The notes beneath the pieces are model-generated. The model was not told where the DNA came from. It saw only the letters and a program-made list of their open reading frames with translations, and ran no database searches. Made by a program: the position numbers and the translations under genes. Positions 17,931-18,416 of a stretch of 21,243 nt of DNA are shown here, piece after piece (the stretch's first letter is position 1; the number at the start of each line of letters is the position of its first letter). Location: positions 1-21,243 of the IMG/VR virus record IMGVR_UViG_2698536657_000004, one strand, 5' to 3'. Source of the stretch: a virus (Duplodnaviria; Heunggongvirae; Uroviricota; Caudoviricetes).

Positions 17931-18206
17931 CCGGGTATCAGTCATGCCCAGAAAATTTTAAATGTCTCACAATTCAGACGGTTGACAGTTGTCTGTTTTG
18001 CGGGGGGTTTGTTAAAAGAAACTGGCATGGTGAATCCCCCTGTGCGGAGGGGCGACTGGTGTATTAGGTGTTATCTTTGATACCCAGGAAAGTGAACGCG
18101 CGGGTTCAGTGGCACCGGGCTGAACTCACCGGGAGGCACCCGGCACCATGCATGAACGGTACATAGCGCTACTCTCCAGCCCCTCTCCGGAGGGGCTTTC
18201 TCGTGG

Positions 18207-18234
18207 GCAAAAAAAAGCCCGAGTGGGTTCGGGC
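18207..18234 (-). terminator. Rho-independent terminator on the minus strand inside the long intergenic region
   Basis: Minus strand reads gcccgaacccactcgggc followed by tttttttt. Confidence 0.55.
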
Positions 18235-18289
18235 AAGAGCATGAGATATACATTTTTATAATCGAATAGATTTTAACCAGATTTCATAA

Positions 18290-18315
18290 GGCTGCGCAAC
18301 TGCGTGGCCTTTTTC
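18290..18315 (+). terminator. Candidate plus-strand terminator upstream of the esterase gene
   Basis: 8-bp stem with two G-U pairs (ggctgcgc-aact-gcgtggcc) followed by ttttt. Confidence 0.4.
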
Positions 18316-18416
18316 GTATTGCGGGCTGTAGTCTTCCTTCTGTCATTATCCTGTAACTTCCGGACTTCAGCCCGCTCCTTATCTGACTCACAACATTATC
18401 CCGGCCGGGAGGATTC

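Follow-up and report, generated by a model that had tools for sequence, protein, structure and literature searches.

A probable convergent small-RNA cassette upstream of the esterase gene of a TerB-carrying prophage, with an anti-sRNA seed distinct from the three published ones

Convergent pairs of small RNA (sRNA) genes were described by Tree et al. (2014) between the moron coding sequence and a conserved downstream open reading frame (ORF) in the prophages Sp3, 4, 5, 9, 10, 11, 15, and 17 (PMC4104026, text and Table S2). In Sp5, EcOnc27 on the plus strand abuts AsxR on the minus strand (PMC4104026). Here we analyze a 490-bp interval (positions 17927 to 18416) in a 21,243-nucleotide stretch of Caudoviricetes DNA (IMG/VR record IMGVR_UViG_2698536657_000004, positions 1 to 21,243; hereafter the window), located between the stop of a small membrane ORF of 52 hydrophobic amino acids (17926) and the ATG of an esterase gene (18417). 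The interval very probably is a lambdoid-prophage convergent sRNA cassette in which an STnc100-type sRNA gene faces an anti-sRNA gene of the AsxR/AgvB type, because family matches, location, the expression of relatives, conserved architecture, covariation, and genomic context all agree.

The described minus-strand members of such pairs, EcOnc01 (AgvB), EcOnc02 (AsxR), and EcOnc03, are 51 to 60 nt long, with a conserved 3′ region of ~42 nt that includes the terminator and a variable 5′ region of 14 to 18 nt that carries the specificity (PMC4104026). The 5′ ends of AsxR, AgvB, and EcOnc03 are primary (triphosphate) according to RNA ligase-mediated rapid amplification of cDNA ends (RACE), and Δhfq data are available for EcOnc01 to EcOnc03 (PMC4104026). 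AsxR destabilizes FnrS, leading to derepression of chuS, while AgvB imitates the dppA site, which is a target of GcvB, and acts as a GcvB sponge (PMC4104026). On the plus strand, STnc100/EcOnc27 has been placed just 3′ of stx2B (PMC12711010, PMC12370729). Hfq binding and expression of EcOnc27 were documented by cross-linking and analysis of cDNA plus Northern blotting (PMC4104026), and 11 STnc100 copies are expressed in strain EDL933, where their coverage by ribosomes is low (PMC5331693). According to Zhu, Shabalina, and Storz, STnc100 is related to PasD, an Hfq sRNA of enteropathogenic Escherichia coli (EPEC) encoded directly 5′ of a sialate esterase gene (bioRxiv 10.64898/2026.05.13.724894). 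In EPEC, PasD was found in association with Hfq by RIL-seq (PMC8550237), and PasD2, 5′ of the esterase gene, is Hfq associated and visible on Northern blots (PMC8550237; bioRxiv 10.64898/2026.05.13.724894).

The position of the interval in the window corresponds to that of the described pairs, i.e., 3′ of the Q/PR′ cargo and 5′ of the esterase and lysis genes. The neighboring genes were confirmed as Q (14265-14672), a methylase gene, three tRNA genes, TerB (17266-17769), and a SASA esterase gene of the NanS-p type (18417-20372; domains SASA, DUF1737, and DUF6645). The spacer between stxB and nanS-p of Shiga toxin (Stx) phages, to which an initial annotation made from the sequence alone had pointed for comparison, is exactly where the homologues lie (PMC4104026). 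Of 5,426 complete E. coli genomes, 2,669 contain the homologous block, which was also found in 348 phage records, most of them from Stx-converting phages. Homology to Stx phages begins at ~17963, slightly 5′ of the putative plus-strand sRNA promoter, a point that marks the cargo boundary. The initial annotation had noticed three hairpins and a TATAAT hexamer in the interval, all of which are indeed there; the elements of the two genes are as follows.

17996-18208, plus strand: STnc100-family sRNA gene (Rfam RF02076), corresponding to EcOnc27 of the Stx2 phage Sp5 and a distant relative of PasD.
17989-18018, plus strand: likely sigma-70 promoter of the plus-strand sRNA, with −35 TTGTCT (17989-17994), a 17- or 18-nt spacer, and −10 TTAAAA/TAAAAG (18012-18018).
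~18025 to 18204, plus strand: probable mature STnc100-type RNA of ~180 nt, its 5′ end placed by alignment with PasD2.
18152-18177, plus strand: variable linker, single stranded, joining the 5′ domain to the terminator; candidate seed.
18178-18206, plus strand: terminator 1 of the STnc100-type sRNA, a GC-rich stem of 8 bp followed by an interrupted U-tract (UUCUCGUGG).
18264→18209, minus strand: AsxR/AgvB/EcOnc03-family anti-sRNA gene of 56 nt (Rfam matches, conserved scaffold, CGAUUAUAAAAAUGUAUAUCUCAUGCUCUUGCCCGAACCCACUCGGGCUUUUUUUU).
18264→18247, minus strand: 18-nt, class-specific 5′ seed of the anti-sRNA, CGAUUAUAAAAAUGUAUA.
18270-18299, minus strand: likely promoter of the anti-sRNA, with −10 TAAAAT (18275→18270) and a weak −35 TTGCGC (18299→18294).
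18257-18262, plus strand: TATAAT hexamer, the complement of anti-sRNA seed positions 3 to 8.

The plus-strand gene matched the Rfam STnc100 model (RF02076) along its entire length (model positions 1 to 206 of 206, at 17996-18208) with 157.1 bits against a gathering threshold of 47 (E = 1e−35). PasD2 obtained just 41 bits on the same model, which identifies the copy in the window as STnc100 proper and not as PasD. Direct identity with PasD was also rejected by blastn, whose match was confined to the initial 29 nt (83%), and by the absence of the PasD seed UGUGAG. The predicted RNA has a minimum free energy of −76.8 kcal/mol (z = −2.2) and a 5′ domain closed by GCAUGGUG/CACCAUGC. Across 38 aligned loci, helices 1, 6, 7, and 8 are 94 to 100% paired with compensatory changes, these being G-C↔A-U and A-U↔G-C/U-A in helices 1, 6, and 7 of the 5′ domain and C-G↔U-A and G-C↔U-A in helix 8 (97% paired), which is the stem of terminator 1. 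The latter hairpin had been described as cccctc-tccg-gagggg at 18180-18195; it is there, and with the flanking pairs included its stem comprises 8 bp (18178-18197; −17.5 kcal/mol, z = −3.0). The terminator of PasD aligns with it. The weak U-tract that follows (CTTTCTTGTG) is common to the entire seed class to which the window belongs (see below), while other classes have T5 to T7.

The 5′ end of PasD2 determined by RNA-seq (PMC8550237, table S6) aligns to G18025 (GCAUGGUGAAUCC), 6 to 7 nt past the −10 element. A −35 TTG and a GTTAAAA block are invariant at fixed spacing in the 38 loci, including loci with unrelated upstream cargo, and 17989-18018 is thus likely to be the promoter of the plus-strand sRNA. 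We rejected the perfect TTGACA at 17982-17987 as a −35, since there is no −10 within 16 to 18 nt downstream and the hexamer is missing from AgvB-type loci that keep TTGnnn-17-TTAAAA. The Northern probe used for EcOnc27 matches the Sp5-type homologue of the plus-strand segment. In the centroid fold, the linker at 18152-18177 is unpaired, and among the loci it is the most variable segment, flanked by near-invariant sequence. The mapped PasD seed, UGUGAG, lies at the position equivalent to the linker (PMC8550237, fig. S5). This motif is absent from the window linker, which by analogy is a candidate seed of the plus-strand sRNA. Within the STnc100 body, the internal hairpin (18056-18100) and the linker occur in several unrelated versions (alignment A2, columns ~135 to 195 and ~249 to 279, respectively). 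The version of the one is linked neither to that of the other nor to the anti-sRNA seed class, a pattern that implies frequent recombination inside the cassette.

On the minus strand, the initial annotation had recognized an orphan terminator and proposed that it signaled an sRNA, a suggestion borne out by our analysis: the terminator (stem 18234→18217, then U8 at 18216→18209) is the 3′ end of a 56-nt anti-sRNA of the AsxR/AgvB family. A permissive Rfam scan gave 62.7 bits with the AsxR model (RF02703) at 18264→18212 (gathering threshold, 63; E = 2e−9) and 42 bits, of the 56 needed, with the AgvB model (RF02702). The 5′ end, CGAUUAU, coincides with the RACE-mapped AsxR start (PMC4104026), the predicted length falls within the 51 to 60 nt of the family, and the scaffold, UCUCAUGCnnUUGCCCGAACCCACUCGGGC followed by U8, is the exact family pattern. 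The RNA folds with −11.5 kcal/mol (z = −2.6). The two genes converge, with 3′ ends at 18206 (plus) and 18209 (minus), and the same arrangement was found in 38 of 38 aligned loci. A single bidirectional terminator was ruled out, as there are two separate hairpins, the U-run of each being on one strand only. The opposed terminators reported in the initial annotation are thus real, but it had been missed that they end two convergent sRNA genes, the first hairpin terminating STnc100. Their number alone would not have been informative, five terminator-like sites in 2.5 kb compared to 3.0 ± 1.8 in shuffled sequences not being above chance; we consider the sites real because they are conserved and their stems covary.

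The −10 element of the anti-sRNA lies 5 nt 5′ of the start (C18264), and the corresponding plus-strand sequence, ATTTTAACCAG, is invariant across four seed classes, the −10 block being common to all 38 aligned loci. The putative −35 (TTGCGC, 18299→18294) sits within the plus-strand hairpin of a further terminator, terminator 2. The TATAAT hexamer had been flagged as a perfect −10 lacking a convincing −35. The hexamer is present and indeed no −35 was found, but a promoter function is improbable: the hexamer is complementary to the anti-sRNA seed and exclusive to the seed class of the window, AsxR loci having TAATAAT and AgvB and EcOnc03 loci no TATAAT at that position.

To place the anti-sRNA within its family, we searched IMG/VR with a pattern describing the conserved scaffold; this recovered at least 119 contigs and, with one Stx2a phage record, gave 120 loci. 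All have the same scaffold, and they fall into four seed classes: AgvB (59 loci), EcOnc03 (21), AsxR (16), and that of the window (24). The window's seed, CGAUUAUAAAAAUGUAUA, is letter-identical in 24 of 24 IMG/VR loci of its class and distinct from the three published seeds, and none of the papers searched for the seed sequence contained it. Its class occurs in about 183 to 197 of the 5,426 complete E. coli genomes, for example that of strain 2013C-3033, and carries no annotation there, and the 135-nt anti-sRNA segment is conserved at 90 to 99% identity in about 190 E. coli genomes; no match was obtained among complete phage records. Scanning species-representative genomes for the scaffold yielded a sole hit, an 888-bp contig labelled Xanthomonas pisi (NZ_JPLE01000080.1), and spread beyond Escherichia was not shown. 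That contig carries an STnc100 plus AsxR locus of the Stx2-phage type and is probably an assembly contaminant.

Two identities were considered for this RNA and rejected. AsxR proper is disfavored by the subthreshold score and by the seed, which differs from that of AsxR at 4 of 16 positions (U8A, C13U, A15U, and G16A), the U8→A change falling within the FnrS loop-pairing stretch. The predicted pairing with the FnrS terminator loop is not kept in a crude test, −5.0 kcal/mol for the window's seed (73% of shuffled seeds do as well) versus −10.4 kcal/mol for AsxR. Because of the seed differences and the predicted loss of FnrS pairing, the target probably differs from that of AsxR. AgvB is disfavored because the CACAACA mimic of the GcvB target is absent, the model score is 42 versus 56 bits, and the predicted GcvB interaction is −4.3 versus −12.4 kcal/mol for AgvB. 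Pairing of the anti-sRNA with its own convergent partner was no better than with shuffles. We hold it as a tentative proposal, plausible though short of probable, that the prophage anti-sRNA family includes a fourth, as yet unnamed specificity class to which the minus-strand RNA (seed CGAUUAUAAAAAUGUAUA) belongs, and that this RNA perhaps neutralizes another host sRNA or mRNA.

Compared with the described systems, the locus is of the same kind as the EcOnc27/AsxR cassette of Sp5 and would work like it. The order and orientation are identical (cargo, STnc100-type sRNA on the plus strand, anti-sRNA on the minus strand, plus-strand terminator, esterase), and 93% of the interval aligns at ~81% identity. 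In its first 7 nt and its terminator the anti-sRNA does not differ from AsxR, and both cassettes have the same −10 block and terminator 2. In contrast, the Sp5 cassette lies 3′ of stx2AB whereas the cargo in the window comprises TerB, methylase, and tRNA genes; besides the seed changes, the window has another linker, one other internal hairpin module, and a weaker terminator 1 U-tract. AgvB (EcOnc01) and EcOnc03 of Sp10, Sp17, and Sp9 share with the window the scaffold (UCUCAUGC..UUGCCCGAACCCAYUCGGGC plus U-run), the locus, and the convergent partner, but their 5′ seeds are unrelated to the window's. The PasD2-esterase-PasA locus in prophage PP2 of EPEC E2348/69 is similar in having a plus-strand sRNA directly 5′ of a SASA esterase gene, after a small ORF of the DUF3927 type, and the 5′ stem GCAUGGUGAAUCC and overall fold of PasD2 are common to the window RNA. 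PasD loci differ from the window by lacking both the anti-sRNA gene and terminator 2, and no PasA/PasC homologue was detected 3′ of the esterase gene in the window by blastn or Rfam. Overall, the plus-strand gene shows every structural attribute of STnc100 except a clean U-tract, and the minus-strand gene every structural attribute of the anti-sRNA family of Tree et al. What is new is confined to the uncharacterized seed class and an unexplained stem-loop in the esterase leader, the remainder being established biology.

Between the anti-sRNA start and the esterase gene, the following additional elements were identified.

18288-18314, plus strand: terminator 2, a putative back-stop whose 10-bp stem carries a loop of 4 nt and is followed by T5.
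18322-18374, plus strand: conserved stem-loop in the esterase mRNA leader (stems 18322-18328/18368-18374 and 18330-18334/18362-18366).
18407-18412 and 18417, plus strand: Shine-Dalgarno GGGAGG and ATG of the esterase gene, GGGAGGA.T.ATG being invariant among the loci.

The plus-strand hairpin with T5 of the initial annotation corresponds to terminator 2 (hairpin 18288-18311, T5 18310-18314). Helix 9, its stem, is 96% paired, and variation is limited to G-C↔G-U at two positions of the 3′ arm plus an invariant U-G; a single sequence breaks a pair. The wobbles would be A-C mismatches in a minus-strand RNA and the fold is stronger on the plus strand (−15.7 kcal/mol, z = −3.9, versus −10.9 kcal/mol on the minus strand); terminator 2 therefore acts on the plus strand, and the same evidence excluded the hairpin as a minus-strand element. 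It accompanies the anti-sRNA gene in all classes and at every locus, i.e., 109 of the 109 loci (out of 120) with enough flanking DNA, and overlaps the probable −35 of the anti-sRNA. Its most economical role, we infer, would be that of a back-stop keeping plus-strand read-through out of the esterase and lysis genes in the lysogen. The leader stem-loop, overlooked in the initial annotation, has a loop of ~27 nt and no U-tract. RNAalifold on 26 distinct loci predicted 12 pairs, two of them with compensatory changes, and many G-U changes valid on the plus strand only.

How the cassette operates can be proposed from these data and from its characterized relatives. Located 3′ of Q/PR′ and its cargo (methylase, three tRNAs, and TerB in the window; stx in Stx phages) and 5′ of the esterase and lysis genes, it would be expressed in this host from two promoters of its own. 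The plus-strand promoter (−35 at 17989, −10 at 18012) would drive a ~180-nt STnc100-type RNA ending at terminator 1, most likely trans-acting via the linker and presumably Hfq dependent, its relatives being Hfq bound in enterohemorrhagic E. coli and EPEC. The minus-strand promoter (18299→18270) would drive the 56-nt anti-sRNA, a conserved scaffold and terminator with an 18-nt class-specific seed, which by analogy with AsxR and AgvB may pair with and neutralize a host Hfq-dependent sRNA. Because the terminator 1 U-tract is poor in this class, read-through past it is likely to be appreciable; it could arise either from the STnc100 promoter via the weak terminator or from unmodified PR′ transcription, and would be stopped by terminator 2 in the lysogen. 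After induction, Q-modified polymerase would ignore all three terminators and transcribe antisense to the anti-sRNA gene.

Several observations weigh against a cassette of this type. Both sRNA promoters are nonconsensus and were not called by a consensus promoter scan, terminator 1 has the interrupted U-tract UUCUCGUGG, and the AsxR model score is 0.3 bits under the gathering threshold, so that a gathering-threshold scan does not report the gene. The plus-strand 5′ end is only tentatively placed at 18025 and may lie farther upstream, toward 17960: EcOnc27 measured ~235/247 nt on Northern blots, versus 171 nt from GCATGG to terminator 1 in an Sp5-like phage. In that Stx2a phage, the distance from the PasD-type start is 171 nt to terminator 1 and 282 nt to terminator 2, and the published Northern sizes (Tree et al., Table S2) thus provide only provisional ends for the plus-strand RNA of Stx phages. 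Finally, in an accessibility-corrected but underpowered screen of 19 K-12 Hfq sRNAs, which recovered the AgvB-GcvB control (−12.4 kcal/mol) and missed the validated AsxR-FnrS pair, no sRNA paired with the seed more strongly than −5 kcal/mol. The failure of trans-target searches would fit an alternative in which the cassette acts mainly in cis, the convergent genes together with terminator 2 constituting a switch, based on transcriptional interference or antisense, that tunes the esterase and late genes, rather than a sponge for host sRNA; plus-strand read-through, from the STnc100 promoter or PR′, would silence or form duplexes with the anti-sRNA, or the reverse. The weakness of terminator 1 in the window's class, the full complementarity to the 56-nt RNA of a plus-strand transcript extending to terminator 2, and the constant association of terminator 2 with the anti-sRNA gene, as opposed to its absence from PasD loci without one, are all in keeping with such a switch. 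We nevertheless regard it as unlikely to be the main mode of action, although some regulation in cis may occur alongside, since trans targets have been demonstrated for AsxR and AgvB (PMC4104026), the 5′ seeds vary by class on a fixed scaffold as trans specificity predicts, and the Hfq peaks of the two RNAs in Sakai abut without overlap (PMC4104026, Table S2).

The interrupted U-tract and the subthreshold AsxR score could likewise indicate that the two genes, while recognizable by homology, are decaying and nonfunctional relics in this prophage, terminator 1 having degraded and the seed being a mutated form of that of AsxR, and identity to the best E. coli match is only ~92% (7-kb right half of the window compared). 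The seed and its surrounding segment, however, are conserved as described above, the weak U-tract is shared across the class and is not a private lesion, and the helices, the −10 blocks, and the two other terminators are all intact, making decay improbable. Even less credible is a pure terminator or insulator cluster between cargo and late genes devoid of any stable regulatory RNA. Three terminator-like sites do occur within 140 bp, and the insulator idea of the initial annotation survives in the narrow sense that terminator 2 could plausibly protect the esterase and lysis genes, probably blocking read-through into them in the lysogen. But an insulator has no need of a 150-nt conserved, covarying 5′ domain or of a promoter-proximal, class-specific seed, and the homologues are abundant Hfq-bound RNAs (PMC4104026, PMC8550237); the region is thus not purely an insulator. 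The least probable alternative, with next to no chance of being correct in our judgment, is that a 60-aa minus-strand ORF (18071-18253) or a similar one codes for a small protein, as annotated in some database records. Such an ORF is listed, and "hypothetical protein" annotations over homologous DNA exist in some phage and E. coli records. The longest ORFs, however, vary in strand, frame, and length (31 to 96 aa) among 61 distinct homologous loci, 6 of the 13 loci of the window's own class have no ORF of >38 aa, and the ORF is antisense to the covarying RNA. The small-protein ORF was rejected on this lack of conservation, and the statement of the initial annotation that no protein-like ORF is present holds in substance. 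Annotated "hypothetical protein" ORFs, some of them pseudogenes, also lie over PasD, STnc100, or anti-sRNA genes in loci L002 (3198-3439) and L003 (1801-2199) and in the phage records HE664024 and HG792102. Because ORF conservation is lacking, these are probably misannotations.

Elsewhere in the window, at 7679-7867 and 8338-8526, an isrK sRNA with a C4 antisense RNA behind it occurs twice in tandem, ~660 bp apart, with all four matches above the Rfam gathering thresholds; these pairs constitute a duplicated antirepressor control module of the P1/P7 type. The tRNA genes form a cluster at 16324-16605, 3′ of the methylase gene (tRNA-Met[CAT], tRNA-Arg[TCG], and tRNA-Arg[TCT]), followed by a plus-strand terminator (16586-16605), a trio that we take to resemble the ileZ-argN-argO genes upstream of stx in Stx phages. 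Just past the esterase stop, at the position of PasA/PasC in EPEC, lies a second opposed pair of terminator-like sites (20374-20479), one on the minus strand (GCCGCCAGTA...TACTGGCGGC plus T7) and one on the plus strand (ACACCG...CGGTGT plus T5), with no blastn or Rfam match to known sRNAs.

Prophage anti-sRNAs are among the few known routes by which phages reprogram host posttranscriptional networks, AsxR acting through FnrS on heme use and AgvB through GcvB on amino acid transport. Our analysis indicates that the same cassette travels with nontoxin cargo, here TerB, methylase, and tRNA genes. For annotation, the long spacer 5′ of nanS-p-type esterase genes is better read as a pair of sRNA genes and a terminator than as hypothetical ORFs, and with the Rfam AsxR threshold the window's class is missed by 0.3 bits. 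The fourth seed class, widespread yet unannotated, provides a concrete RNA for study and, if it is indeed a separate specificity, would add to the host regulons rewired by prophage sponges.

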